From positions 217 to 64,216 of the forward strand of contig JAJZYB010000007.1 of the NCBI GenBank assembly GCA_021806135.1: a stretch of DNA of 64,000 bases. Direction: 5' to 3'. The translations under genes and the position numbers were made by a program. The stretch comes from Thermoplasmata archaeon (GTDB lineage Archaea; Thermoplasmatota; Thermoplasmata; Lutacidiplasmatales; UBA184). Shown here one piece after another: positions 1 to 36,691 of this stretch. How positions within the stretch are numbered: the stretch's first letter is position 1; each line of letters begins with the position of its first letter. The notes beneath the pieces are model-generated. The model was not told the DNA's origin, did no database searches, and saw only the letters and a program-made list of their open reading frames with translations.

Positions 1-74
1 TCCGTCATACAGGATCTGCGTATTGCGTTGCCCCCCGTCCCGGGCCTGCCCCCGGGACGGCGCCCGGCCCTCCG

Positions 75-2711
75 TTGGGGCCTGGCCCTCGGCCAACCTT
101 TCTCTGCCCGGGGCCAATGCCTCCCCCTGATGACCGAGCGGCAGGGGACCCGATGACGGACCCTGCCCCGGGGGGTTCCGGCAGTTCGCCACCCCCCAAG
201 CCACGAGACGGGCCCGGGGGGGCCGTGGCGGAGCGCTGGCGCTCCCTCTCCTATCCCGAGGCCCTCGCCGCCCTCACGGTGGACCCGGCCCGGGGCCTCT
301 CGGCCGCCGAGGTATCGCGACGCCGGGGGAGCGCGGGCCTCAACGAGGTGGCCGACCGCCCCACCCCCGCCATCCTCCGCCTGCTGAGACAGTTCTGGGG
401 GCCCACGGCCTGGATGCTGGAGGTCACCGCGCTCTTCGCCGGCGCCCTCGGGAACGCGGTGGATGCCGTGGTGATCGCCCTCCTCCTCGTCTTCAACGTC
501 GTCTTGGGATTCACCCAGGATTGGCGGGCGGGCCGCGCCCTCTCCCTCCTGCGGCAACGCCTCGAGGTCCGCGCGAGGGTATTGAGGGACGGGTCGTGGA
601 CGGCGGTCCCCGCCCGGGAGCTCGTCCCCGGCGATCTCTTGAGGCTCCGGGCCGGGGACATGACCCCGGCCGACGTGAAGCTCGGCGTCGGGGAGATGGA
701 GACCGACGAGTCCGCCCTCACCGGCGAATCCGCCCCGGTCGACAAGAGCCCGGGCGCGCTCCTCCTCTCCGGCTCCGTGGTCCGCCGCGGGGAGGGGACC
801 GGGGTGGTCATCCTCACGGGGGCCTCCACCCTCTTCGGCCGGACGGTCTCCCTCGTCCGGAGCGCCCACCCGAAGTTCCACGTCACCGAGGTGACGAACC
901 ACCTGGTCCGCTGGCTCCTGCTCATCGTCGGGGCCTTCCTCTCGGTGGGGTTCGCCGTGGCCGCGCTGGAGCACCTGGCCCTCCTCCCCCTCCTCCCGTT
1001 GATGCTGGTCCTGCTCATCTCCGCGATCCCGGTGGCGCTCCCGGCGATGTTCACCGTCTCCACGGCCCTGGGCTCCCTGGAGCTCGTCCACCGGGGCGTG
1101 CTGGTGACGCGGCTGAACGCCAGCGAGGACGCCTCCAGCATGGACCTCCTGCTCACCGACAAGACCGGCACCCTCACCCAGAACCGCGCGGAGATCGCGG
1201 AGACCCTGCCCGGCCCCGGCCTCACCCGGGAGGACGTGATCCGATGGGGAGCGGTGGCCTCCCAGGAGGCGGACGAGGACCCCATCGACCTGGCCTTCCT
1301 GGAGGAGGGCCGGAAGATCCCCGGGCCTCCCCTACCCCAGGCGGACCGGTTCGTCCCCTTCGACCCGTCCACCCGCCGCACCGAGGCCATCCTGGGGGCG
1401 GGGCCCCAGCGTGTCCAGATCGCCAAAGGCTCGCCCGGGACCCTGGCCCAACTGGCGGCCCTTCCCGGGCCGGAGCGCTCGGCCCTGGAGGAGCGGGTGA
1501 AGGCCCTGGCGGATCGGGGGCTCCGCTCCCTCGCCGTGGCCCGGCGGACCGGCGAGGGGCCCTGGCAGCTGCTCGGGCTGGTGGGGATCCAGGACCCCCC
1601 CCGGCCGGATGCCCGGGCGCTCATCGCGGAGCTGCGGGAGCAGGGGGTGGGGGTCAAGATGCTCACCGGGGACTCCCAGGCGGTGGCCCAGCACGTGGCC
1701 CGGGAGGTGGGGCTGGGCTCCCGGATCCTGGACGGGGAGGATTTCCGGCAGGCGGTCCCGGCCGGTCTGGCCGGGGCCGGCCGACGGGCCGAGGAGGCCG
1801 ACGGGTTCTCCCGGGTCTTTCCGGAGGACAAGTTCACCATCGTGAAGGCGCTCCAGTCCCGCGGCCATCTCGTGGGAATGACCGGGGACGGGGTCAACGA
1901 CGCCCCCGCCCTCGCCCAGGCGGAGGTGGGGATCGCCGTGAGCAGCGCCACCGACGTGGCCAAGGCCTCGGCCAGCGCGGTCCTCACCGCTCCCGGTCTC
2001 GAACCGATGGTACGGATGGTCCAGGTGGGCCGGGAGATCCACCAGCGGGTGGTCACCTGGGTCTTAAGCAAGATCGTGAAGACGTTCCAGATCGCGGTGT
2101 TCGTGGTGGTCGCCTTCCTCCTCCTCGGCCAGTTCGTGGTCAACACGTTCGACGTGGTCCTCCTGCTCCTCACCGTGGACTTCGTCACCCTGGCCCTCGC
2201 CACGGACAGCGTCCGCGGATCGAAGGCCCCCGCCACCTGGGAGATGCCGCCGTTGCTCCGCACGGGGGTGGTGGTCGGGACCCTGGCCCTCGGGGAGTCC
2301 CTCTTCCTGCTCGCCCTGCTGCGCTCCCTGGCCCCCGGGGTGATGGCCTCCCCCACCCTGCTCAACACGGTGGGGTTCGAGATCCTGTTCTACTTCGGGC
2401 TCTTCACCGTGCTCTCGGTCCGCAGCGAAGGCCACTTCTGGGCCCGCCGGCCGGGGCGGGACCTCCTGGTGGCCTGCGGCATCGACCTGGGGGTGCTCAC
2501 GGGGCTGGTGACCGTGGGGATCCCCTACCTCTCCGCCGTGCCGCTCCCGGTGACGCTCCTGGTGCTGGGCCTGGTGGCGGCCTTCGCCTTCGGGGTGAAC
2601 GACGCCGTGAAGACCCGCCTGCTCCGTTCTCGCCGCAGCGCCGGTACGACGCGCGGGGGAACCTACGGTCCTGCGGCCCCTCGTCGAGGGGAGCCCGTGG
2701 GGACCCCGTAG
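75..2711 (+). CDS. P-type cation-transporting ATPase (type III H+/Mg2+-like)
   Basis: DKTGTLT phosphorylation motif, TGDGVNDAPAL hinge motif, multiple TM helices at both ends. True start may be the internal Met at 117 or 153. Confidence 0.9.
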   Translation: MGPGPRPTFLCPGPMPPPDDRAAGDPMTDPAPGGSGSSPPPKPRDGPGGAVAERWRSLSYPEALAALTVDPARGLSAAEVSRRRGSAGLNEVADRPTPAILRLLRQFWGPTAWMLEVTALFAGALGNAVDAVVIALLLVFNVVLGFTQDWRAGRALSLLRQRLEVRARVLRDGSWTAVPARELVPGDLLRLRAGDMTPADVKLGVGEMETDESALTGESAPVDKSPGALLLSGSVVRRGEGTGVVILTGASTLFGRTVSLVRSAHPKFHVTEVTNHLVRWLLLIVGAFLSVGFAVAALEHLALLPLLPLMLVLLISAIPVALPAMFTVSTALGSLELVHRGVLVTRLNASEDASSMDLLLTDKTGTLTQNRAEIAETLPGPGLTREDVIRWGAVASQEADEDPIDLAFLEEGRKIPGPPLPQADRFVPFDPSTRRTEAILGAGPQRVQIAKGSPGTLAQLAALPGPERSALEERVKALADRGLRSLAVARRTGEGPWQLLGLVGIQDPPRPDARALIAELREQGVGVKMLTGDSQAVAQHVAREVGLGSRILDGEDFRQAVPAGLAGAGRRAEEADGFSRVFPEDKFTIVKALQSRGHLVGMTGDGVNDAPALAQAEVGIAVSSATDVAKASASAVLTAPGLEPMVRMVQVGREIHQRVVTWVLSKIVKTFQIAVFVVVAFLLLGQFVVNTFDVVLLLLTVDFVTLALATDSVRGSKAPATWEMPPLLRTGVVVGTLALGESLFLLALLRSLAPGVMASPTLLNTVGFEILFYFGLFTVLSVRSEGHFWARRPGRDLLVACGIDLGVLTGLVTVGIPYLSAVPLPVTLLVLGLVAAFAFGVNDAVKTRLLRSRRSAGTTRGGTYGPAAPRRGEPVGTP

Positions 2712-3892
2712 GGGAGCGAAGGGCCCGGGCGCTCTTCCCCGGAGTCCCGGACGCCGAACGAGGGGAGGAGCGCGCTGGGGTCCGGAAGCTCCGTGGGCGG
2801 CAGATACTGCTCGAGCGGGGCTCCCCGGATCCGGATCACCCGCCGGGCGACCTGGGCGCAGTAGCCGCAGTCCGAGCATCGGGTCCGGTCGCAGTCGGTG
2901 GCCAGGACCCGCTTGAGGAATCCCGGGGGGAACGCCCGGTTGTCCAGTTCCATCTCCCCCAGGGCCTCGAAGGCGGCGGAGAGCGGTCCCACCACCTCGG
3001 GCACGTCCCCCCGGACCCGGAGCCGCCGGAGGGCGCCCCGGGGGCCCCGGTTCTGCACGTAGCTCAGCACGTCCAGAAGGTTGCCCGGATAGCGGCGGGC
3101 GCTGTAGGCCCGCGCGGCCCGGAGGAGCCACTCCGTGGGGTGGTTCCTCCCGGAGATCTTGAACCGGTGGACCCCGAGCTCCTCCAGGGCGGAGAGGTCC
3201 TCGGGGCGGACGAAGATCCCCGAGACGAGCTTCACCGGGTCCTTCACCACCTCGAGGCCGCACTGGAGGAGGGGGTACTCGAACCAGGGCGCGTCGGTCC
3301 CCTCCTGGGAGGCGAGGGAGCTCGTGCTCAGGTGGTGGAACCGGAACGGACAATCGTGGATGCAGGTCTGGTTCACCAGCACCTCCACGCGGGCCCCCAG
3401 GTCCACGAGGCCGCGCAGCAGCCCCCGGTTCCGGTTCGCTTCCTCGAGCACGAGGGTGTCGGCGCCCCGCTGTAGGAAGTATTCCCCCTGGGCGACGGTG
3501 CGGATGCGGGCGAAGGTGGAGACGCTGAGCCGGAGGTCCGGGTACTCCCGGTGGATCCGGTCCAACAGGAGCGGAACGGCGACGACGAACCCATCGACCC
3601 CCCAGTCGACGAGCCGTCCGACCTCCCGGGAGAACTGATCGAGGAAGGATGGGCGGTACTCCTTCAGGCCGGTGTCGGCGCTGTTCACCGTGGCATAGAA
3701 CCGACGGCCGGAGGCGTGGACCTCGGCCAGGTGCCTCCGGAACCCTTCCTCCGTCACGTTGGGAAGGATGTTGGGGGGCCGTCCGCCCCCCACCAGGCTG
3801 GTGGGGAAGTTCCCGAAGAGGGATTCCACGGGGAGCCCACTCAACCCGGGGATGAGCTCAGGGTCGAAGTTGGAGGCGAGGACCAGCTCCAT
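2663..3892 (-). CDS. peptidase U32 family protein
   Basis: N-terminal MELVLASNFD...LVDWGVDGFVVAV pattern typical of U32 collagenase-like proteins; C-terminal Cys cluster. The 3' end overlaps the convergent ATPase by about 50 nt. Confidence 0.65.
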   Translation of the reverse strand: MELVLASNFDPELIPGLSGLPVESLFGNFPTSLVGGGRPPNILPNVTEEGFRRHLAEVHASGRRFYATVNSADTGLKEYRPSFLDQFSREVGRLVDWGVDGFVVAVPLLLDRIHREYPDLRLSVSTFARIRTVAQGEYFLQRGADTLVLEEANRNRGLLRGLVDLGARVEVLVNQTCIHDCPFRFHHLSTSSLASQEGTDAPWFEYPLLQCGLEVVKDPVKLVSGIFVRPEDLSALEELGVHRFKISGRNHPTEWLLRAARAYSARRYPGNLLDVLSYVQNRGPRGALRRLRVRGDVPEVVGPLSAAFEALGEMELDNRAFPPGFLKRVLATDCDRTRCSDCGYCAQVARRVIRIRGAPLEQYLPPTELPDPSALLPSFGVRDSGEERPGPSLPYGVPTGSPRRGAAGP

Positions 3893-3978
3893 GTCTCCCC
3901 GAACCGTGCGGCCGCTTACGCTTTGGACCGCACCGGTAAGGGTCGGAATCCATCCGTCCGGAGGCCTCCCCTTAGCCC

Positions 3979-4452
3979 ATGGTAGACGGATCCCTCCCGC
4001 CGGCCGATCTGGAGAGCTTCCGACGAGCGCTGGAGCGTCTCGACCGGGAGATGCTCACCCTCTACTCCCGCCGGCGCCAACTGGTCCGCGACCTCTGGGA
4101 GCACAAGCGGGGCCGGGGGCTTCCCCTGCGGGACCGGGGGCAGGAGCAACGGGTCCTGGAACGTGCCCGCAAGGCCGCGGGGTCCGAAGGGATCCCCCCG
4201 GCGGAGGCGGAGGCGCTCATGCGTTGGCTCCTCCTGGCCTGCCGCCGCGCGGCCCGCTCCCCGCCCCGTTGGGTCGGCAAGGCCCGGGAAGGCCCGAGGG
4301 ACCGGGGATCCCTGTCGCGGGGGGGCCCTCTTTCCCGACGCGACCCTGTCCGGCTCATGGAAGGTTCATACGCACAATTTGCGTCCGATGGACATGCGGG
4401 ACCCGGGCCGGGGAGGAAGGTGGGAGCGAGGCCCCGTGGAACCGGCCCTTGA
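3979..4452 (+). CDS. chorismate mutase (AroQ class)
   Basis: LESFRRALERLDREMLTLYSRRRQLVRDLWEHKRGRGLPLRDRGQEQRVLERARK matches the AroQ helical chorismate mutase domain. The ORF carries a low-complexity 3' extension beyond the roughly 100-aa domain. Confidence 0.6.
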   Translation: MVDGSLPPADLESFRRALERLDREMLTLYSRRRQLVRDLWEHKRGRGLPLRDRGQEQRVLERARKAAGSEGIPPAEAEALMRWLLLACRRAARSPPRWVGKAREGPRDRGSLSRGGPLSRRDPVRLMEGSYAQFASDGHAGPGPGRKVGARPRGTGP

Positions 4453-5149
4453 GCCCCGGGAAGCTCTCGTTGGGGTCGCCCTGTCGGTGCCGCCTGTCAC
4501 CCACTGGCTGCGTCGCCTCACCGAGTGGCCTGGCCTGAGCTCGCGCCTGTTGGCCTGCCAACCGCTGCCGCCGTCTGGCACCCGGGCCGTCCATCTGCTC
4601 GAGCTCGCGGGCCCCGAGCAGGAGATCCGTGCCGCGGTCTCCTCTGTCGCTCATTCTCCGTCCCGCACCGTGGCGCTCTCGCCCGATGCCCGCGACCGGG
4701 TCCTGCTCCGGGTCGTCTCCCGGACCGGGAGTTCCTGTCGTGCCCTCTTCCGGTCCGGAGGGATCTGCCGGACCTGCCGGTTCCGGACCCCCCGGGGACC
4801 GGACGGCCGGGTCCGCTGGGAGATCCTGACCACCCGTCCTCCCCGCCCGCTCCCGGAGATGGAGCAGCGCGCCTGGTCACGGGGCGGAGCGGGGGCCCTC
4901 CGATCCCTGCGCAATCCGCCTCCCTATTCCCAACTGACTGGCCGGCAGGAGGAGGCCCTCCGCTGCGCGGACCGACTCGGGTACTTCTCGGTCCCCAGAC
5001 GGGTCGGCCTCGGAGCGGTGGCCGGGGCCTTGGGGATCAGCCGCTCCTCCGCCGCCGAACTGCTCCGTCGAGGGGTCGCCGTGATGATCCGGTCCCTGGA
5101 CGGCCCCCGGCTCTCGACCGCCCCGGCCCCTCCGGGAGCCCGGGGATAG
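4388..5149 (+). CDS. Bat-like HTH_10 family transcriptional regulator
   Basis: C-terminal LTGRQEEALRCADRLGYFSVPRRVGLGAVAGALGISRSSAAELLRRG matches the HTH_10 (bacterio-opsin activator-type) domain. Start chosen at the in-frame ATG 4388 inside the longer ORF 4163..5149. Confidence 0.6.
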   Translation: MDMRDPGRGGRWERGPVEPALEPREALVGVALSVPPVTHWLRRLTEWPGLSSRLLACQPLPPSGTRAVHLLELAGPEQEIRAAVSSVAHSPSRTVALSPDARDRVLLRVVSRTGSSCRALFRSGGICRTCRFRTPRGPDGRVRWEILTTRPPRPLPEMEQRAWSRGGAGALRSLRNPPPYSQLTGRQEEALRCADRLGYFSVPRRVGLGAVAGALGISRSSAAELLRRGVAVMIRSLDGPRLSTAPAPPGARG

Positions 5150-5206
5150 GACACGCCGCCCGGGGGCCGGGGCGGGAGGGACCCGTCCCGGCCGGTGGGA
5201 ATTGGT

Positions 5207-5788
5207 TCAGGTCAGGAGCCCCCGGAGCACTCGGTTCCGCCAGCCGTCCCCGGAGAACCGCTCGCGCAGGTTCCAGGCCTTCGCCAGTCCGTACGCGTAA
5301 GGCGCGAAGGCCAGGAAGACGAACACGAGCGCCAGCATGAGGTCCCCGCCCAGATCGGTGTAACCGGCAGTGCTCCAAGACGCCCCGATGGCGCTGGGGT
5401 AACCGCCGAAGCCCCCGAAGGCCCAGATGAACCCCATCACGAGGGCGCTCCAGATCGCCGCGGGCCGCTGGAAGAGGCCCAGGATGAGGAAGAGCCCTCC
5501 GAAGGTCTCACCGAGCCCTATCAGGGTCCCGAAGAGGACCCAGTTCGTGGTGAGCCACGCCGGCGTATAGAACTCCCCGGCGACCACCCCCTGCATCTGC
5601 CCCGTGGCGAACAACACCCACTTGAGGGTCCCGTCGAAAAGGAAGATCGCCCCGAACACGATCCGCATCGCCGATAGGGTCCTTACCGGCCAGGCCGTGT
5701 CCGTCTCCGAGACCGATGGGACCCGAAAGACCGTCTTCGTCTCCGGGACAGCCTCTGCGGTCCTCACTCCGACATCCACTGTTGCCAT
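5207..5788 (-). CDS. DoxX family membrane protein
   Basis: About 4 TM helices with a DoxX-like pattern (LRIVFGAIFLFDGTLKW...). Start at the internal Met (CAT at 5786-5788) of ORF 5207..5914. Confidence 0.55.
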   Translation of the reverse strand: MATVDVGVRTAEAVPETKTVFRVPSVSETDTAWPVRTLSAMRIVFGAIFLFDGTLKWVLFATGQMQGVVAGEFYTPAWLTTNWVLFGTLIGLGETFGGLFLILGLFQRPAAIWSALVMGFIWAFGGFGGYPSAIGASWSTAGYTDLGGDLMLALVFVFLAFAPYAYGLAKAWNLRERFSGDGWRNRVLRGLLT

Positions 5789-5940
5789 GTTTCCTACCTT
5801 GGTCCCTCTGGACCCAGGCCGGAGATGGGGAGGATGCGCCTTGTGCGTACCCTCCGGACCGTAAGGAGAGTCCGGAGACGCTCGGGTGAGCCTCGCCCGA
5901 CCCTCATCAATCATTTAGTCCGGGAGGTCGTGGGGACCCT

Positions 5941-7062
5941 ATGGTCCGGGAGGGTGGCGGGGCGGAGGGCACCCAAGCAGACCGCGGCACCACCCGACGT
6001 GTGCAGCGGACGGGGAGTTCGTCCCTTGCCGTGACCCTGCCGAAGTCCTGGACCGAGGCCATGAACGTCCGGGCCGGGACCCCTCTGCGGTTCACCGACC
6101 TGGGGGGAGGCCGCTTAGAGATCGCCATCGGGTCCACGAACGTGGGGGGTCAGGAGCACCCCCAGCCCCTGCGGATCGAGGCCACCGACCTCCCTCCCCA
6201 GTTGCTCTCGCGTCTCCTCGTCGGGTCCTATGTGGTGGGACAAGACCACGTGCACATCACGGCCCGGGGAGGTCTCGGCGGGCCGCAGCGGCAGGAGATC
6301 CGTGCGCTGGCCGCGCGGATGCTGGGGATGAACATCGTGGGGGAGTCGCCCGAGGGGGTCGAGGTCCAGAACTTCGTGGATCCCACCCGTTACCCCTTGC
6401 CCCGTCTCCTCGACCAGATGCTGCGCCTTCTCGGGATGGAGCTCCGCTCGTGCCGGCAGATGCTGTCCACCCGCGATCGGGCGGCGCCGGCCGAGTTCCC
6501 GGGTCGGGAGGAGGAGATCGACCGGCTGTATCTCCTCATGGTCCGGCAGCTCCTCATCGCCTCCGATGACTTTCGCGTGGCCCGGGAGATCGGCGTGGAG
6601 AGCCATCATTACCAGATCGGCTACCGCGTGGTGGTGAAGATGCTGGAGGAGGTGGGAGACCTTCTGGCGTGGATCGGGCCGGAGCTCCAAGGCTCGCTCG
6701 ACCGCCTTCAGGACCTCCCCCAGGGCCCGCTGGGGAATATCGACAGCCAGTTCCAGAAGCTGGAGACGCGCCTCGAGGCCACCATGGAGGCATTCACCCG
6801 CCTTTCGGTGACCCAGGCCAACGCCACCCTCAACGCCATCGAGGAGGACCTCGCGGCTGACCCCGCGCTCCTCAAGTCCATCACCGGTCGGATCCGGGAC
6901 GTCCCCACCGCGAACTCTGTCCAACGGATCGGTTCGGGTCTCGCCCAGGCCCTGCAGATGCTGGCGGTGGTGAACGAGATCACCATCAACCGCGCGGTGG
7001 AGCCCGAGACCGTGGCCCGGTCACAGGGACGAGTGGTCCTCGACACGAGCCGGAAGGCCTGA
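5941..7062 (+). CDS. AbrB/SpoVT-domain plus PhoU-domain regulator (archaeal phosphate uptake regulator homolog), copy 1
   Basis: N-terminal swapped-hairpin AbrB-like motif SSLAVTLPKSWTEAMNVRAGTPLRF followed by tandem PhoU-like helical repeats. Paralog of 34713..35765. Confidence 0.75.
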   Translation: MVREGGGAEGTQADRGTTRRVQRTGSSSLAVTLPKSWTEAMNVRAGTPLRFTDLGGGRLEIAIGSTNVGGQEHPQPLRIEATDLPPQLLSRLLVGSYVVGQDHVHITARGGLGGPQRQEIRALAARMLGMNIVGESPEGVEVQNFVDPTRYPLPRLLDQMLRLLGMELRSCRQMLSTRDRAAPAEFPGREEEIDRLYLLMVRQLLIASDDFRVAREIGVESHHYQIGYRVVVKMLEEVGDLLAWIGPELQGSLDRLQDLPQGPLGNIDSQFQKLETRLEATMEAFTRLSVTQANATLNAIEEDLAADPALLKSITGRIRDVPTANSVQRIGSGLAQALQMLAVVNEITINRAVEPETVARSQGRVVLDTSRKA

Positions 7063-7127
7063 GAGGGCGTCCCCGGGCGGAGAGGGGATCCTGCGACCGC
7101 TGGGCATACCGCCCCTCTTGTTCCCGG

Positions 7128-7280
7128 CTGACCGGTCCGCAAGAGGAGGCGTTCCGCTGTGCGGACCGGCTCGGACATTTTCCGGTCCCCGACAGGCTAG
7201 CGTCCGATCGGTGTTCGGTGCCCCGGGGATTGGCCTCTTCTGCGTCGTCGAACCGCTCGGTCGGGAGGGCGGCGTGATGC
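7128..7280 (+). pseudogene. Decayed fragment of an HTH_10 regulator gene (duplicate of the 3' end of 4388..5149)
   Basis: Translates to LTGPQEEAFRCADRLGHFPVPDRL and, after a frameshift, to ...GAPGIGLFCVVEPLGREGGVM. Compare the intact LTGRQEEALRCADRLGYFSVPRRVGLGAVAGALGIS...ELLRRGVAVM. There is also nucleotide similarity to 4890-5090. Confidence 0.5.
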
Positions 7281-7620
7281 TCCAGGTCACGCATAAGCCC
7301 GGCCTTTCCGGCGCCCCGACGTCCCGCAGGGTTCTCTGGAATGGGCGGGCCATCGCTCCGGGCCCTTCCTGCCCGCCGGTCAGGTCCACCATGAGGAAAC
7401 TTCGCATGGGTCCGAGGGTCGGTCCGTTCAAGGGGTCGGGGTACGCCCCCGACCGGTGGTCACTGCCCCGGCCCTCTCGGCCACGGACGCCTGCGCTTGG
7501 CAGGCGCTCCCGGCCGGGAGCCACGTTCAGGGCGGTTGACTTGGGAGCCAAATACCCGGTCGCGGCGTTCGCCGGTCGCGGAGGCTCACCGAGCCCCGTG
7601 AAGCAAAGGGGGAAACAACG

Positions 7621-8262
7621 ATGACGTTCATCGACAACCTGGGCATCGAGCTCGACGTGCTCATCCTCGTGACCGTGGCCGTCTTCTATACGGGGATCTG
7701 GGTCTGGTGGGGCCTCCGCAAGCAGGACCCCAAGGAAGCGAATGCCAGCCTGCGGGGAGGCGGGGCCGTCCTGGGGCTCCTCGGGGGGTTCCTTCTGCTC
7801 CTGGGGCTCTGGGGGGAGTTCACCTGGCCGCTCCCCGCCTCCTACAACATGCTCTTCTACGATCCCACGGTCCTCGCCGGGATCATCCTGGTGGGGTTCG
7901 CCGTATCCCTCTGGTTCAAGATCCCCTCCCACCTGATCGGGATCATCGCCTTCGTCTCTGGCTGGGGCGTCATCTACTACGGCGCCCGGGCCTATCTTCT
8001 GGGCCTCACCAACGAGCCGTTGGACACGTTCGCCATGTACTTGGCCTTCGGAGCCCTGGCGGTGCTCTCCATGCCCGTCACGCTCTTCGTGGACTGGTAT
8101 GTGACCCGGTCCCAGACGCTGGGAGCCTCTGCCGCTCCCTCCTACCCGAAGATGTGGAACTATGTCCTGGGTCTCTTCCTCCTGTTCGCCGTCCTCGCGG
8201 GGGCCGCGTCCATCTTGATGGGGTTCAACACGGTCTGGAGCCATCTGGCCAAAGCTCCTTAA
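7621..8262 (+). CDS. integral membrane protein (DUF981-like, archaeal)
   Basis: Six predicted TM helices; purine-rich GGGGGAAA stretch 6-13 nt upstream of the ATG. Confidence 0.55.
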   Translation: MTFIDNLGIELDVLILVTVAVFYTGIWVWWGLRKQDPKEANASLRGGGAVLGLLGGFLLLLGLWGEFTWPLPASYNMLFYDPTVLAGIILVGFAVSLWFKIPSHLIGIIAFVSGWGVIYYGARAYLLGLTNEPLDTFAMYLAFGALAVLSMPVTLFVDWYVTRSQTLGASAAPSYPKMWNYVLGLFLLFAVLAGAASILMGFNTVWSHLAKAP

Positions 8263-8398
8263 CGGTGGGCCCGCCGGGGACCTCTCCCCGGACCCCGGGG
8301 TGGTCGCCGGGGACCGCTGTGCGCCCGTCCCTGGGCGAGACGGCGGCCCCCGGCCCCGGGAGGCAAAGGATAAGCGCGGTGGGACACCGGCCCGGGGC

Positions 8399-9280
8399 AT
8401 GGTCCCACTCTCGCTGGAACAGGCGGACCAAGCCCACCGGAACCTGGTGGAGGCCACCTGGGAGTTCATCCGCCGGTTCCCTCGCGCCCATCGCGAAGCG
8501 TGGCCAGAGGCCACCGCTTTCCGCTCCGGCGTCCCTGTTCCCGACGCGAACCAGTTGATCCTGCCGGCTCCCCCCGGTGACGTAAAGGCCCTGGTCGGGC
8601 GGGCCCGAAGGTTCTTCCCTTCGGGTTACCCGTTCGAGATCCTCTCCCCAGCGCCGGGGGAGAGGGACCCGTTCGCCGGGTTCCCTTCGGCGGGGTCCGG
8701 TCCTGCCTTACGGCTGCCCGGGATGTGGATGGACCTCCCCCTGTCCTTTCCATCCCCTCCCGCCGGGCTCTCCGTCCGCACCGTGGCGGACCGAGAGGGT
8801 CTCTCAGACTTTCGGAGGGTGATGGGCTCCGTCTACCACATCCCTGCGGGGTTCCTGCGGATCGTCTTCCCGGGATCCGCGCTCCGGGGGGACGGGTCGG
8901 CCGCCCGGGTGCGCCTGATCCTGGGGTACGCCGGCCCACGGCCGGTCGCGGGCTCCGTCCTGGTGGCCACGGACGGGATCGCCGGGGTCTATTGGGTGGC
9001 CACGGACCTCCGTCAACGTCGCCGGGGCTACGGGGAGGCCGTCACTTGGGCGGCGCTCGCCGCGGGAGAGGAGCTCGGGGCCCGGGCGGGGTTCCTGCAG
9101 GCGAGCCCCCTCGGCCGCCCCGTGTACGAGCGCATGGGGTTCCGGACGGTGCTCGAGTACCAGCCCTGGCAGCCGCTCCGTCCGCGGCTCGACCGCATGA
9201 GGACGGGCCTGCGGTTGCTGGGGAGCGTCCTGGCCAGTTCGTTACGGCGAGCCCCGGTCCCATCTTCGACCGGCCCGTAA
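8399..9280 (+). CDS. GNAT family N-acetyltransferase
   Basis: C-terminal acetyl-CoA binding motif RRRGYGEAVTWAALAAGEELGARAGFLQASPLGRPVYERMGF. Start at ATG 8399 within ORF 8300..9280. Confidence 0.7.
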   Translation: MVPLSLEQADQAHRNLVEATWEFIRRFPRAHREAWPEATAFRSGVPVPDANQLILPAPPGDVKALVGRARRFFPSGYPFEILSPAPGERDPFAGFPSAGSGPALRLPGMWMDLPLSFPSPPAGLSVRTVADREGLSDFRRVMGSVYHIPAGFLRIVFPGSALRGDGSAARVRLILGYAGPRPVAGSVLVATDGIAGVYWVATDLRQRRRGYGEAVTWAALAAGEELGARAGFLQASPLGRPVYERMGFRTVLEYQPWQPLRPRLDRMRTGLRLLGSVLASSLRRAPVPSSTGP

Positions 9281-9671: not shown

Positions 9672-11936
<2,265 letters not shown>

Positions 11937-32578: not shown

Positions 32579-32943
32579 GGTCCGCCCTCCAACGGGTCGT
32601 CGGGGGGGAGAGGCTCGACCCTATGAACTTCACCCACGGACCAGACCCCTGGAGAGGAGACCGACACCACGGACGGGGGCGGGGAACCGAGCGTGGCTCC
32701 CGGGGAGGGCCACGGCTTGGAGGCGGCGTGGCCCTCCCCGGTGGCGGTCGGGGCCGGCGCCGGTGAGCGGGACCCCGGGTCGGTGGCGTCCCGGAGCTCC
32801 CGGAGGAACTCGTCCCGCATCCGCATGACCTTGGCATAGAGCCGTCCTGCGGTGCGGAAGAGCTCCCGGTTGTCTCCCCCCAGGAGGAGGAGGCCGCCGG
32901 CGAGGAGGAGGATCGTCCAATCCACGTCCGAGAAGAGGCTCAT
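32578..32943 (-). CDS. TatA/TatB family protein (TatB-like)
   Basis: MSLFSDVDWTILLLAGGLLLLGGDNRELFRTAGRLYAKV: N-terminal TM plus amphipathic helix typical of TatA/B. Its ATG overlaps the tatC stop (ATGA). Confidence 0.6.
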
Positions 32944-33767
32944 GCGGTCCCTCCAGGGAGGCCGCCGCGGCGGGGGGCGGTGGAGTGGCGCTCGTGCCGT
33001 TCGGCGGCCACCATGCCTCCCACGTAGAGGCCCATCATCGGGATGGCGATGAGCAGCATGGTGATGCCGGAGTTGTCCGGGGTGATGAGCATCCCGAAGA
33101 TGAGGCAACCGAGGATGGCACCCCGCCAGTGCTTCCGCCAGAAGTCCGCCGGCACCAACCGGAGCCGGCTCAGGGTGTAGATGAAGACCGGCAGTTCGAA
33201 GACCACGCCGAAGGCCACGGTGTAGAGGAGCGCGAAGGCGAGGAAGCTCCCCACGCTCAGGACCGGGGCGAGGTTGAGGGCACCCACGTAGCGGAAGAGC
33301 AGCAGGAAGGTGAAGGGGGTGAGCCAGAAGAGGGCCAGGAAGAAGCCCACGGCGAAGAGGAGCGTGGCGGGGAGGGCCACGCTGCGGATGAGCGCCCGCT
33401 CGTTGGTCCGGAGGGCGGGGACCAGGAAGGCCCCCACCTCGTGGGCGATCCAGGGGGTGCTGAGGACGAGGGAGAGGAGCAGTCCGATCTCCATCTGGGC
33501 GACGACGGAGTCTCCCACCCCGATGTTGAGGAGGGTGACGCCCGGCGGGAGCATGTCGTGGGTGAACCAGAGGAACACCTGGGCCGTGATGTTGTAGAAC
33601 GGGCTGGGGATGGGCAGCACGAGCGGGAAAGGGAGCCCGGCGACCGGGAAGGCCTGGAGCTTGAAGAAGAGCAGGAAGCCGAAGAGCGGGACCACCACCC
33701 AGAGGATGCGGACGACCCGTCGCCGGAGCTCGTCCAGCACGCTGAAGAACTGGTGGAGCTCGCTCAT
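32940..33767 (-). CDS. tatC: twin-arginine translocase subunit TatC
   Basis: Six TM helices with a TatC family pattern. Confidence 0.9.
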   Translation of the reverse strand: MSELHQFFSVLDELRRRVVRILWVVVPLFGFLLFFKLQAFPVAGLPFPLVLPIPSPFYNITAQVFLWFTHDMLPPGVTLLNIGVGDSVVAQMEIGLLLSLVLSTPWIAHEVGAFLVPALRTNERALIRSVALPATLLFAVGFFLALFWLTPFTFLLLFRYVGALNLAPVLSVGSFLAFALLYTVAFGVVFELPVFIYTLSRLRLVPADFWRKHWRGAILGCLIFGMLITPDNSGITMLLIAIPMMGLYVGGMVAAERHERHSTAPRRGGLPGGTA

Positions 33768-34407: not shown

Positions 34408-34611
34408 TCAGCGCAGTTGGGCCTGGTCCCGGGCCACGCGGGCGTTGCTCTGGGACTGGGCGAGCTCGAGCTCGGACTCCGTCTTCCCCTTCTTGAACTC
34501 CCCCACGGCCCGGCCGAGGCTGTGGGCGAGCTGGGGGATCTTGGCGGAGCCCCAGAAGAGGATGGCGAAGACCACGGCGATGATGATCCAGTCGTCGATG
34601 CTGTCGAACAT
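34408..34611 (-). CDS. tatA: twin-arginine translocase subunit TatA
   Basis: 67 aa: MFDSIDDWIIIAVVFAILFWGSAKIPQLAHSLGRAVGEFKKG is the canonical TatA TM plus amphipathic helix. Confidence 0.8.
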   Translation of the reverse strand: MFDSIDDWIIIAVVFAILFWGSAKIPQLAHSLGRAVGEFKKGKTESELELAQSQSNARVARDQAQLR

Positions 34612-35909: not shown

Positions 35910-35927
35910 GTTCGTATGTGTACGAAC
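35910..35927. promoter_or_regulatory. Inverted repeat GTTCGTA-tgtg-TACGAAC
   Basis: Second copy of the TTCGTA/TACGAA palindrome, between the sulfocyanin-like gene stop and the AbrB-PhoU copy 2 promoter. Confidence 0.45.
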
Positions 35928-35950: not shown

Positions 35951-36691
35951 TCACGGGGCGCCCGGCTTGGCCGGGGGGGCCGGCTCCTCCTCGTCGTCCG
36001 GCTCGTCCCGGCCCTCCGTGAGGTCCAACGGATACGGACGCGAGTCGTTGTAGTATTCCACCCGGCTCGTCAGCGGGGTGCCTTCCGCGGGAACCACGCC
36101 CTCCTCCGGGTGCCCCCGCTTCCCGTAGACCACGCCGAGGACCAGCGAAAGGAAGGCGAGGACCACCACCGCGATCACCACATACCAGAAGGCGGCGAAG
36201 GACGGGGCCGCCGCCGGGGCGATGCTCTCGTCCACGTAGACGAACCCTTCCATCCCCAGTGGATAGTGGGGCCGGCAGATGAACTGGTAGGCGCCGGGAG
36301 CCCCGAAGGTGACGTTCACGTAGATCACCTGGGACGCGTTCACCGTCCGGTCGGCGTACACGTCCGCCGGGGAGAAGAAGCTCGGCCAGTTGGAGTTGGT
36401 CGACGGAGGCGCGGTCTTGTTCACCTGGTTGGAAAGGGTGAACGTGTGGAGGTAGGTGCCTCCGACGTTGGAGATGATGAACTCCACCGCCTTGCTCGTC
36501 ACCTGGACGTCGGCCGGGACGAAGGTGAAGGAGTTCGTCGTGCTGATGTTCACCACCGTGACGCCGTTATGGGCCGGGGGATGCACCAGGGTCCCGTTCG
36601 GGCCCGTGGGGCCCGCCTGGGCGGCCCAGCCGAGGCCCGAGAGGACCACGGCCACCGCGAAGAGCACCGCCGCCAAGCGTAACGCACCCAT
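35951..36691 (-). CDS. sulfocyanin/halocyanin-like type-1 blue copper protein with C-terminal TM anchor
   Basis: Cupredoxin ligands in HTFTL and QFICRPHYPLGMEG (His, Cys, His, Met). Signal peptide, many N-x-S/T sequons, C-terminal hydrophobic anchor. Confidence 0.8.
   Translation of the reverse strand: MGALRLAAVLFAVAVVLSGLGWAAQAGPTGPNGTLVHPPAHNGVTVVNISTTNSFTFVPADVQVTSKAVEFIISNVGGTYLHTFTLSNQVNKTAPPSTNSNWPSFFSPADVYADRTVNASQVIYVNVTFGAPGAYQFICRPHYPLGMEGFVYVDESIAPAAAPSFAAFWYVVIAVVVLAFLSLVLGVVYGKRGHPEEGVVPAEGTPLTSRVEYYNDSRPYPLDLTEGRDEPDDEEEPAPPAKPGAP

Follow-up and report, generated by a model that had tools for sequence, protein, structure and literature searches.

A two-gene doxX/abrB-phoU cassette beside an HTH_10 gene in a Thermoplasmata archaeon: a likely insertion scar and a candidate site for an AbrB-PhoU protein

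The described proteins closest to the ones considered here are bacterial PhoU, the SpoVT/AbrB transcription factors and archaeal regulators of the SpoVT/AbrB family that contain a PhoU domain. Bacterial PhoU acts through PstB/PhoR and, to our knowledge, has no DNA-binding domain. SpoVT combines AbrB with a GAF domain, and AbrB itself shows loose sequence specificity. Two AbrB-PhoU genes, here called copy 1 and copy 2, and an HTH_10 regulator gene beside copy 1 were examined in a stretch of 64,000 nucleotides (nt) from a Thermoplasmata archaeon (assembly GCA_021806135.1, contig JAJZYB010000007.1, positions 217 to 64,216), referred to as the window. It has a G+C content of 69.8%, and its nearest database proteins all come from metagenome-assembled genomes of Thermoplasmata. 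Among the archaeal relatives, TK2245 of Thermococcus kodakarensis was found among chromosome-associated proteins (PMC7325993), and seven transcription factors of the PhoU family have been counted in Pyrococcus furiosus (PMC6316755). PhoU2 of Haloferax volcanii (HVO_2374) is syntenic with the phosphate transporter pst1 and is discussed as a regulator of inorganic phosphate, and its transposon mutant is tolerant to hypochlorite (PMC6267482). ExxxD pairs bind multinuclear metal clusters in PhoU of Thermotoga maritima, as cited in PMC6267482. Our literature search returned annotations or predictions and no functional study of AbrB-PhoU proteins, no defined operator or ligand for archaeal SpoVT/AbrB-PhoU proteins, and no paper on DUF981, a membrane protein family that recurs below.

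An earlier note on this DNA had reported two AbrB-PhoU genes and, for HTH_10, both an intact gene and a frameshifted repeat of its 3' end, all of which were recovered by Pfam matches and alignment (Table 1). The broken copy had been placed at 7128-7280. It is real but longer: alignment with relatives extends it from 7069 to ~7342, the position of the former stop codon, after which the native downstream flank of HTH_10 follows and continues to DUF981. Local nucleotide alignment of 4876-5094 with 7069-7288 gave ~72% identity with single-base indels and a score of 146, compared with 25.8±3.1 (maximum 38) for shuffled sequences (n=300); the best score for the HTH_10 3' end anywhere else in the window was at most 32. 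The HTH_10 protein matched the remnant by tblastn with 47% identity across 47 amino acids (aa; E=2e-7). A short low-complexity stretch, which the note had named as a possible trivial cause, does not explain the match, as the similarity spans the whole HTH_10 domain and is not low-complexity. The duplicated unit consists of ~274 nt of coding sequence and ~20-35 nt past the stop codon, ~0.3 kb in total.

The two copies of this unit have fared differently. Related loci compared with the window carry the labels L001-L064; relative to L009, the left copy in the window has a 14-nt deletion. The right copy translates into the HTH_10 domain in one frame and then shifts frame near 7191. Since the remnant is also found in L009 and L007, which are independent assemblies, it is no assembly artefact. 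It is 68.6% identical between the window and L007, the surrounding DNA being ~79-84% identical, and L007 has lost a further ~100 nt (window 7178-7280). A broken frame, no start codon, faster divergence and lineage-specific decay are all features of a pseudogene, and the right copy appears to be drifting neutrally while the left copy is kept in a working HTH_10 gene. A stand-alone mini-HTH protein was considered for the remnant and ruled out by the missing start codon, the frameshift before the recognition-helix region and the deletion in L007.

Relatives with an uninterrupted site define what lies between the repeats. The HTH_10 gene of L060 (71% identical) is followed by DUF981 and GNAT genes, with 222 nt between HTH_10 and DUF981, and the locus is collinear with window 4462-5115 and 7522-9238. 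Its HTH_10 3' end matches the remnant too, at 7122-7331, and the sequence in front of its DUF981 gene aligns with ~7480-7620 of the window. L008 (HTH_10 77% identical) is collinear with window 1-5128 and lacks the cassette after HTH_10; its HTH_10 3' end together with 164 nt of flank aligns with window 7075-7513. The window locus is thus native on both sides, with an extra segment in between. Two independent routes give concordant limits for this segment. On the left, the match of the repeat to the empty sites ends at ~5168, and homology to doxX/abrB-phoU loci in unrelated contexts (L001, L004) sets in at 5167/5168; on the right, homology to L001/L004 stops at 7046-7063, and 7069 is the first position of the right repeat. 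At the HTH_10 site the cassette is confined to the window and its closest relatives, L009 and L007, and it is absent at 77%, 71% and 45% HTH_10 identity (L008, L060 and L010/11, respectively). This confinement to the closest relatives favours insertion over repeated loss.

We propose that the ancestral order was a U32 peptidase gene divergent from chorismate mutase, HTH_10, DUF981 and GNAT genes, and that a 1.9-kb two-gene cassette would have inserted just past HTH_10 in the lineage shared by the window, L009 and L007. The cassette would have brought two divergent genes, doxX (minus strand) and abrB-phoU (plus strand), with a promoter region of 152 nt between them, and its insertion would have duplicated the ~0.3 kb of target, made up of the HTH_10 3' end and flank given above. 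Single-crossover integration of a circular DNA bearing the target, or staggered-break repair, could have produced the repeat; the sequence does not discriminate integration of this kind from repair of widely staggered breaks, and the only sequence shared at the right junction is a 5-nt microhomology, GCCTG. As the right copy is frameshifted, drifting and without a start codon, the remnant is very likely an insertion scar and not the relic of a duplicated regulator pair, and this rearrangement is the well supported part of our reading.

A different history had been drawn from the same features by the earlier note, namely tandem duplication of an AbrB-PhoU plus HTH_10 pair followed by decay of one HTH_10 copy. 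A partial second HTH_10 does lie directly after an AbrB-PhoU gene, and two AbrB-PhoU paralogues do occur in one window. Duplication and decay hold for the 3' end of HTH_10 but not for the whole gene, since only ~0.3 kb exists twice, and tblastn found no second AbrB-PhoU fragment near 4388-7300. The intact HTH_10 gene is overlapped upstream by chorismate mutase and not by AbrB-PhoU, the empty-site relatives show DUF981 directly after HTH_10, and the repeats bracket a cassette at a site that is uninterrupted in L060 and L008. The paralogues share 33% identity, are separated by 28 kb and have distinct conserved surroundings, and HTH_10 almost never co-occurs with AbrB-PhoU, so that duplication of the pair is hardly credible. 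The opposite polarity, in which a repeat-flanked cassette was ancestral to the clade and was lost from L008 and L060 by pop-out recombination, deserves more weight. Direct repeats of 0.3 kb are good deletion substrates, and recombination between them would regenerate the empty state, so that L008 and L060 could be secondary losses and polarity is not proven. The L008 3' end shows 78-81% identity to left copies and 70% to right copies, the pattern expected of a recombinant or of a copy derived from the left one; these are small-sample distances and not decisive, and a rate difference between a selected and a neutral copy accounts for them equally well. A DoxX-type cassette is also present elsewhere in an L008-like lineage (L001). 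However, the cassette at this site is limited to the window, L009 and L007, and the absences at 77%, 71% and 45% HTH_10 identity would need two or three independent precise losses, which makes pop-out unlikely.

Besides the possibility of pop-out, several observations weigh against the insertion of a discrete cassette. No integrase, transposase or terminal inverted repeats were found for it, and no flanking direct repeats surround it in its other contexts (L001, L004, L013 and L015). It codes only for DoxX and AbrB-PhoU, the duplication is ~0.3 kb and not the 2-14 bp of a mobile element, and the insertion sequence (IS) elements near the locus in relatives are never at the cassette junctions. 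Its apparent discreteness may partly reflect homology ending where conserved genes end. It also sits beside DUF981, the ancestral partner of the regulator family, a coincidence that is unexplained, and the indels in the HTH_10 gene of L007 come from a contig with 4.9x coverage. Overall, an insertion scar combined with a role of copy 1 at the tandem 9-mer described below is the explanation that we favour and consider probable.

Copies 1 and 2 are genuine full-length paralogues without an established function, as had been claimed. The AbrB/MazE domain (PF04014) scored 32.2 bits in copy 1 and 42.1 bits in copy 2 (cut-off 24.7); it was matched in 88/88 family members, and Pfam PhoU (PF01895) was matched in 39/88 with a best E of 6e-8. 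Structure prediction, which had been suggested as a check, was carried out for copy 1 with AlphaFold from the 88-sequence alignment. The model has a predicted local distance difference test score (pLDDT) of 83 and a predicted template-modelling score (pTM) of 0.75, with the helices of the bundle (153-351) mostly above 85, and the AbrB half-barrel has the low confidence that is expected for a monomer model. The 11 best Protein Data Bank (PDB) matches found by Foldseek, which include 2i0m, 1t72, 1t8b, 1sum, 4q25, 1xwm and 3l39, are without exception PhoU or PhoU-like proteins, with a probability of 1.00 and target-normalised TM-scores of 0.49-0.76. The predicted structure confirms that the C-terminal part adopts a PhoU fold, with two repeats forming a six-helix bundle. 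Residues E190, E192, D194, E236, G239 and D240 are invariant in the copy-1 group. They fall in repeat 1, which has two ExxxD motifs (E190xxxD194 and E236xxxD240) and an LEExGD signature; repeat 2 has N294xxxN298 and E346xxxN350, with N at the corresponding D positions. Copy 1 would be a one-component transcription factor, in which AbrB binds DNA and the PhoU bundle senses a signal or binds a partner.

The copy-1 orthogroup has members of ~375 aa, and 309 homologues of copy 1 were found. A profile search of 1.84 billion cluster representatives (clustered at 50% identity) returned 4,267 relatives with E<=1e-3, 358 of which had E<=1e-30; most were full-length at 340-375 aa, so the AbrB-PhoU architecture is common. 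Some relatives of 470-505 aa (P0255, P0258, P0262 and similar) match the family profile only from about position 52, and a different N-terminal region of ~150 residues replaces AbrB in them. This suggests that the DNA-binding head may be swappable on the same alpha/beta plus PhoU body.

Genome context was compared across 45 loci of the copy-1 family collected with a family profile search. The gene immediately upstream and divergent is DUF981 in 37/45 and DoxX in 5/45; the 3/45 with neither include a 2.7-kb contig and a Woesearchaeota match of 23% identity. The neighbour-joining tree places the DoxX-linked genes, including that of the window, in one derived clade within the DUF981-linked majority, and L023 is a further DoxX case outside this clade. 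DoxX as merely a divergent DUF981 was ruled out by profile-profile comparison (hhalign probability 0.07%). Because the two families are not detectably related, the target gene was swapped while the regulator and the promoter region were kept. DoxX orthologues are called at 193-206 aa with conserved Shine-Dalgarno (SD) sequence and ATG. In DUF981-type loci the first gene of the divergent unit is a conserved basic small open reading frame (sORF) of 44-48 aa; after it come DUF981, a protein of 364 aa from an unknown family and a glyoxalase. The sORF, MRxGEGFRVFDRANWQRKARVPxW..RAExEKR, lies between the 18-nt motif and DUF981 (L016-L049, L062-L064; for example L063 9714-9854, minus strand), and it has no homologue in the window and no Pfam match.

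HTH_10 had been taken as the partner of AbrB-PhoU, with the proviso that the idea would fall if the two were never co-located in other genomes. A search of 49 copy-1 loci with the HTH_10 domain hidden Markov model placed it within 5 kb only in L007, L009 and the unrelated L037. Outside the window lineage co-location is therefore essentially absent, L037 being the sole exception, and the conserved partner of the copy-1 family is DUF981 or DoxX, not HTH_10.

The divergent promoter region contains an 18-nt motif, the tandem 9-mer of Table 1. Its strict pattern was present in 45/60 sequences examined, always in the abrB-phoU orientation, and in 36/45 genome loci, with variants in about five more; recognisable variants account for most of the loci without the strict pattern. 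The information profile of 38 distinct loci shows the 18 positions almost fully conserved, the flank towards abrB-phoU unconserved and the flank towards the divergent gene partly conserved. An exact-match scan of metagenome contigs found the motif at 80 loci. All 20 of the Thermoplasmata-type loci (64-71% G+C) carry a copy-1 family locus: the AbrB-PhoU start is 85-109 nt downstream in 17/20, the contig ends with only the sORF/DUF981 visible in 2/20, and 1/20 has a frame-split AbrB-PhoU match. The sORF and DUF981 are on the other side of the motif in 19/20. The other metagenome loci are low-GC contigs, tandem arrays and unrelated sequences, and the high-GC exceptions inspected are bacterial-looking SD sequences or coding repeats. 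A wider regulon was looked for and rejected, as the motif is single-copy in the window and the metagenome scan gave no convincing site upstream of another gene in Thermoplasmata-type contigs. A mini-ORF (open reading frame) reading of the conserved block beside the motif was also rejected, its frame not being conserved between DUF981 and DoxX types.

The distance from the motif to the divergent start is fixed for each type of locus, at 54-57 nt for the sORF in most DUF981-type loci and 72 nt for doxX. The opposite strand reads CTCCTTAC twice, which is TATA-like, and in a sister subclade (L044-L052) abrB-phoU itself has CTCCTTAT at position -30. Where an IS3-family element (HTH_Tnp_1 + rve) splits the divergent control region (L001-L003 / L012 ~4168-5315), the motif remains with the doxX side, apart from the abrB-phoU promoter. 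The AT-rich box at 5904-5919 is, from archaeal promoter geometry, the probable TATA box of a leaderless abrB-phoU transcript. We propose that copy 1 would act at the tandem 9-mer GTAAGGAGA-GTAAGGAGA (5861-5878), and that binding there would control the divergent membrane-protein gene, which is the sORF plus DUF981 in most Thermoplasmata and doxX in the clade of the window. There is about an even chance that the motif serves the divergent gene as a TATA-like core promoter and that a specific factor site overlaps it. Next to the doxX SD, the hairpin of 5801-5814 shows weak compensatory support (GC<->AU and CG<->UA exchanges in both arms among 8 sequences), and the arms in relatives read TTGACCC..GGGTCAA (L013/14) and TGGCCC..GGGCCA (L023).

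Two other roles have to be weighed for these elements. Public annotation calls copy 1 a 'phosphate uptake regulator', and its predicted PhoU fold would suit a conventional regulator in which PhoU senses Pst activity and represses phosphate-uptake genes. Yet no pst, pit or pho genes were found around copy-1 orthologues (±6-10 kb) or near the window gene, and the neighbours of the orthologues are DUF981, glyoxalase, OsmC and similar genes. Because phosphate-transport genes are not linked to it, the label is probably wrong for copy 1; with a small membrane protein of unknown function as the conserved partner, and with N instead of D ligands in PhoU repeat 2, the phosphate role is itself quite improbable. 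The 18-nt motif could, for its part, be transcribed and act as an anti-SD RNA element in the 5' untranslated region of the divergent mRNA, its UCUCC repeats gating doxX or sORF translation via the GGAGG SD. On the minus strand, the motif consists of two UCUCCUUAC units that complement GGAGA/GGAGG; in the RNAalifold result the doxX SD is paired with the first UCUCC (5 pairs in 6-8/8 sequences); and the AT-rich box at 5904-5919 could be a bidirectional promoter. The pairing shows no covariation, however, both sides being invariant and the covariation term unfavourable (+0.64 kcal/mol). The spacing to the sORF ATG (54-57 nt) and doxX ATG (72 nt) fits a TATA box better, as does the presence of CTCCTTAT at -30 of abrB-phoU in L044-L052, and no Rfam family matches the region: a scan of 4000-9000 gave one chance-level match in a coding region and none in intergenic DNA. 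We give the RNA element a low but appreciable chance. It weighs against a protein site, and the function proposed for copy 1 rests on position and conservation. Support for PhoU at the sequence level is weak: the Pfam PhoU match of copy 1 is under the gathering score (17.2 vs 23.5 bits), and a family-alignment profile search of PDB sequences gave no match, PhoU being recovered by fold comparison.

Action of copy 1 at the tandem 9-mer, the reading that we prefer, could extend to the whole group. Tentatively, and with more doubt than confidence, copy 1 and the tandem 9-mer may form an undescribed Thermoplasmata-wide regulatory unit, in which a PhoU-domain factor would sense metal, redox or membrane-partner state, not phosphate, and switch the sORF-DUF981 or doxX operon. 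Regulator and promoter would move as a self-contained cassette and capture new targets, as in the swap from DUF981 to DoxX.

Table 1. Features of the window discussed in the text (position 1 is the first letter of the window)
Feature	Position	Strand	Remarks
Peptidase-U32 family gene, weakly TrhP/UbiU-like	2663..3892	-	Pfam Peptidase_U32 E=1.5e-9; first member of the block U32 <- -> CM_2 -> HTH_10
Chorismate mutase CM_2	3979..4452	+	Pfam CM_2 E=1.8e-14; 17-nt overlap with HTH_10 start
HTH_10-family regulator gene, intact	4436..5149	+	Pfam HTH_10 E=1.1e-12; start given as 4388 in the earlier note
Left copy of direct repeat	4876..5168	+	last ~274 nt of HTH_10 and ~19 nt past stop codon
Probable inserted cassette: doxX, divergent promoter region, abrB-phoU	5169..7068	.	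1.9 kb; absent from empty-site relatives
DoxX-family membrane protein gene, 193 aa	5207..5788	-	Pfam DoxX E=4e-8; GGAGG-type SD before start ATG
Small hairpin GGTCCCTCTGGACC	5801..5814	-	directly 5' of doxX SD; compensatory changes in relatives
Tandem 9-mer GTAAGGAGAGTCCGGAGA, 18 nt (family consensus GTAAGGAGAGTAAGGAGA)	5861..5878	+	only match in window; candidate operator / TATA-like promoter of divergent gene
AT-rich box TCATCAATCATTTAGT	5904..5919	+	centre ~26 nt before abrB-phoU ATG; position conserved in relatives
AbrB-PhoU copy 1, 373 aa	5941..7062	+	AbrB swapped-hairpin, alpha/beta ~77-147, six-helix PhoU bundle ~153-351 (predicted)
Right copy of direct repeat, decaying HTH_10 3'-end remnant	7069..7342	+	frameshift near 7191, stop codon lost, no start codon
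Native 3' flank of HTH_10 and DUF981 upstream region	7343..7620	+	collinear with empty-site relatives (L008 5549-5712, L060 ~816-1037)
DUF981 membrane protein gene	7621..8262	+	Pfam DUF981 E=2e-36; native neighbour of HTH_10
AbrB-PhoU copy 2, 350 aa	34713..35765	-	separate orthogroup fixed in respiratory/Tat cluster; 33% identity to copy 1

The HTH_10 domain (PF04967) of the intact regulator gene covers residues 183-228 of the open reading frame 4388-5149 and scores 48 bits against a cut-off of 23.1. Intact orthologues of 65-100% identity are called at 237-251 aa, except for one call of 361 aa, and more distant relatives are 36-45% identical. The 237-aa length called for orthologues makes the GTG at 4436 the probable true start, giving a protein of 237 aa. 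The ratio of non-synonymous to synonymous substitution rates against L009 and L008 is 0.29-0.34 for HTH_10 and 0.16-0.18 for the U32 gene; HTH_10 is under purifying selection, with weaker constraint than the U32 gene. The copy in L007 has five indels and is not called as a gene, as read from a contig of 4.9x coverage. The gene had been described as Bat-type, which goes beyond the matches obtained: Pfam and NCBIfam detected the HTH_10 domain alone, with no GAF, PAS, BAT or other domain in the 165 N-terminal residues, and the safe label is therefore 'HTH_10-family'.

The block of U32, CM_2 and HTH_10 genes is conserved in L008, L009, L010/11 and L061. It occurs without DoxX or AbrB-PhoU after HTH_10 in L008 and L010/11; L061 carries U32 and HTH_10, and its contig stops just past HTH_10. 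NCBIfam TrhP/UbiU matches of the U32 product (2663..3892) are weak and far under the curated cut-offs, and the NCBIfam archaeal chorismate mutase match of the CM_2 product (3979..4452; E=3e-14) is also under its curated cut-off. The NCBIfam description names TrhP a prephenate-dependent hydroxylase. Other U32 enzymes are likewise named prephenate-dependent hydroxylases, and chorismate mutase makes prephenate. The pairing of U32 with chorismate mutase may be a substrate-supply module with its own HTH_10 regulator.

Comparison of the same region with close relatives gave further observations. The window and L009 are 97.5% identical across 8.1 kb, and ~150/208 differences fall within 4200-5500, a tract that covers the 3' end of chorismate mutase, the whole of HTH_10 and the 3' half of doxX. 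The tract is ~11% divergent and the remaining DNA ~99.3% identical, and it looks like an allelic replacement by homologous recombination. The catalase-peroxidase region 3' of GNAT (window 9739-11931) is inverted relative to L007 8181-10373, and L060 has a MIP channel gene in its place. Besides the IS3-family element described above, transposase genes were found close to the cassette or to the HTH_10 locus (L004, L008).

Copy 2 lies in a respiratory cluster with a palindrome nearby, as the earlier note had stated, and both the cupredoxin/Tat context and the palindrome were found. Its pairing with copy 1 as a duplicated module did not hold up. The two are 33% identical over 232 residues and 28 kb apart, and each falls in an orthogroup of its own that is widely conserved in Thermoplasmata and has its own fixed neighbours and synteny. 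They are ancient paralogues and not a recent duplication. Copy 2 has 354 homologues, and members of its orthogroup are of ~346 aa. Orthologues of 55-56% identity (L057-L059) always show the order cupredoxin/SoxE, the gene itself, tatA, tatC, Rieske, cytochrome b and COX1, and COX2 lies upstream; the window has cupredoxin (35951-36691), copy 2, TatA (34408-34611) and TatC (32940-33767) in this order. The positions of D194 and D240 are occupied by G and R in copy 2, with loss of the ExxxD motifs, and the paralogues probably sense different things. Copy 2 would presumably regulate the cupredoxin / Tat / Rieske / cytochrome b / oxidase cluster. The perfect palindrome GTTCGTAtgtgTACGAAC occurs once in the window, at 35910-35927 (145-162 nt upstream of the gene), and is a possible copy-2 operator. 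A related palindrome, CTACGAnCCTCGTAG, precedes the ATG of copy-2 orthologues by ~20-40 nt.

The AbrB-PhoU family is of a known but uncharacterised kind, and the partner genes and the 18-bp motif are new leads. A family of ~4,300 cluster representatives at 50% identity has never been characterised, and its phosphate label is probably misleading: it splits into orthogroups with fixed non-phosphate contexts, either a DUF981/DoxX membrane protein or a respiratory/Tat cluster. One orthogroup has an exact 18-bp candidate binding site, which gives a testable protein-DNA hypothesis, and DUF981, a family without literature, gains a first functional link. The insertion scar is ordinary genome history; the locus is also a clean natural example of how a two-gene cassette of regulator and target can come to lie elsewhere between long repeats of the target, and relatives with the empty site allow comparison.

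The rearrangement resembles Campbell-type insertion-duplication, in which an insert is bracketed by two direct copies of the target of a few hundred bp, one completing the gene and the other truncated. Unlike the Campbell-type case, no circular donor, integrase or attachment-site core is identifiable at the window locus, and the repeats are now only ~70% identical, so that the original junctions are not reconstructable. Copies 1 and 2, like the archaeal SpoVT/AbrB family regulators containing a PhoU domain (PhoU2 and TK2245), are predicted transcription factors, but PhoU2 is linked to pst1 whereas the window copies are associated with DUF981/DoxX (copy 1) or with the Tat/respiratory cluster (copy 2). 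The predicted six-helix bundle with two repeats is shared with bacterial PhoU (2i0m, 1t72, 1sum and 4q25), and repeat 1 of copy 1 keeps the ExxxD pairs. It differs from bacterial PhoU in sequence, with only 12-17% identity, in its repeat 2, which reads NxxxN/ExxxN, and in the fusion of the bundle to AbrB and a small alpha/beta domain. Like the SpoVT/AbrB one-component regulators, copy 1 would have an N-terminal swapped-hairpin AbrB domain and a separate C-terminal domain for sensing or oligomerisation; unlike in SpoVT, the predicted sensor is PhoU and not GAF, and the candidate site is a precise tandem 9-mer.

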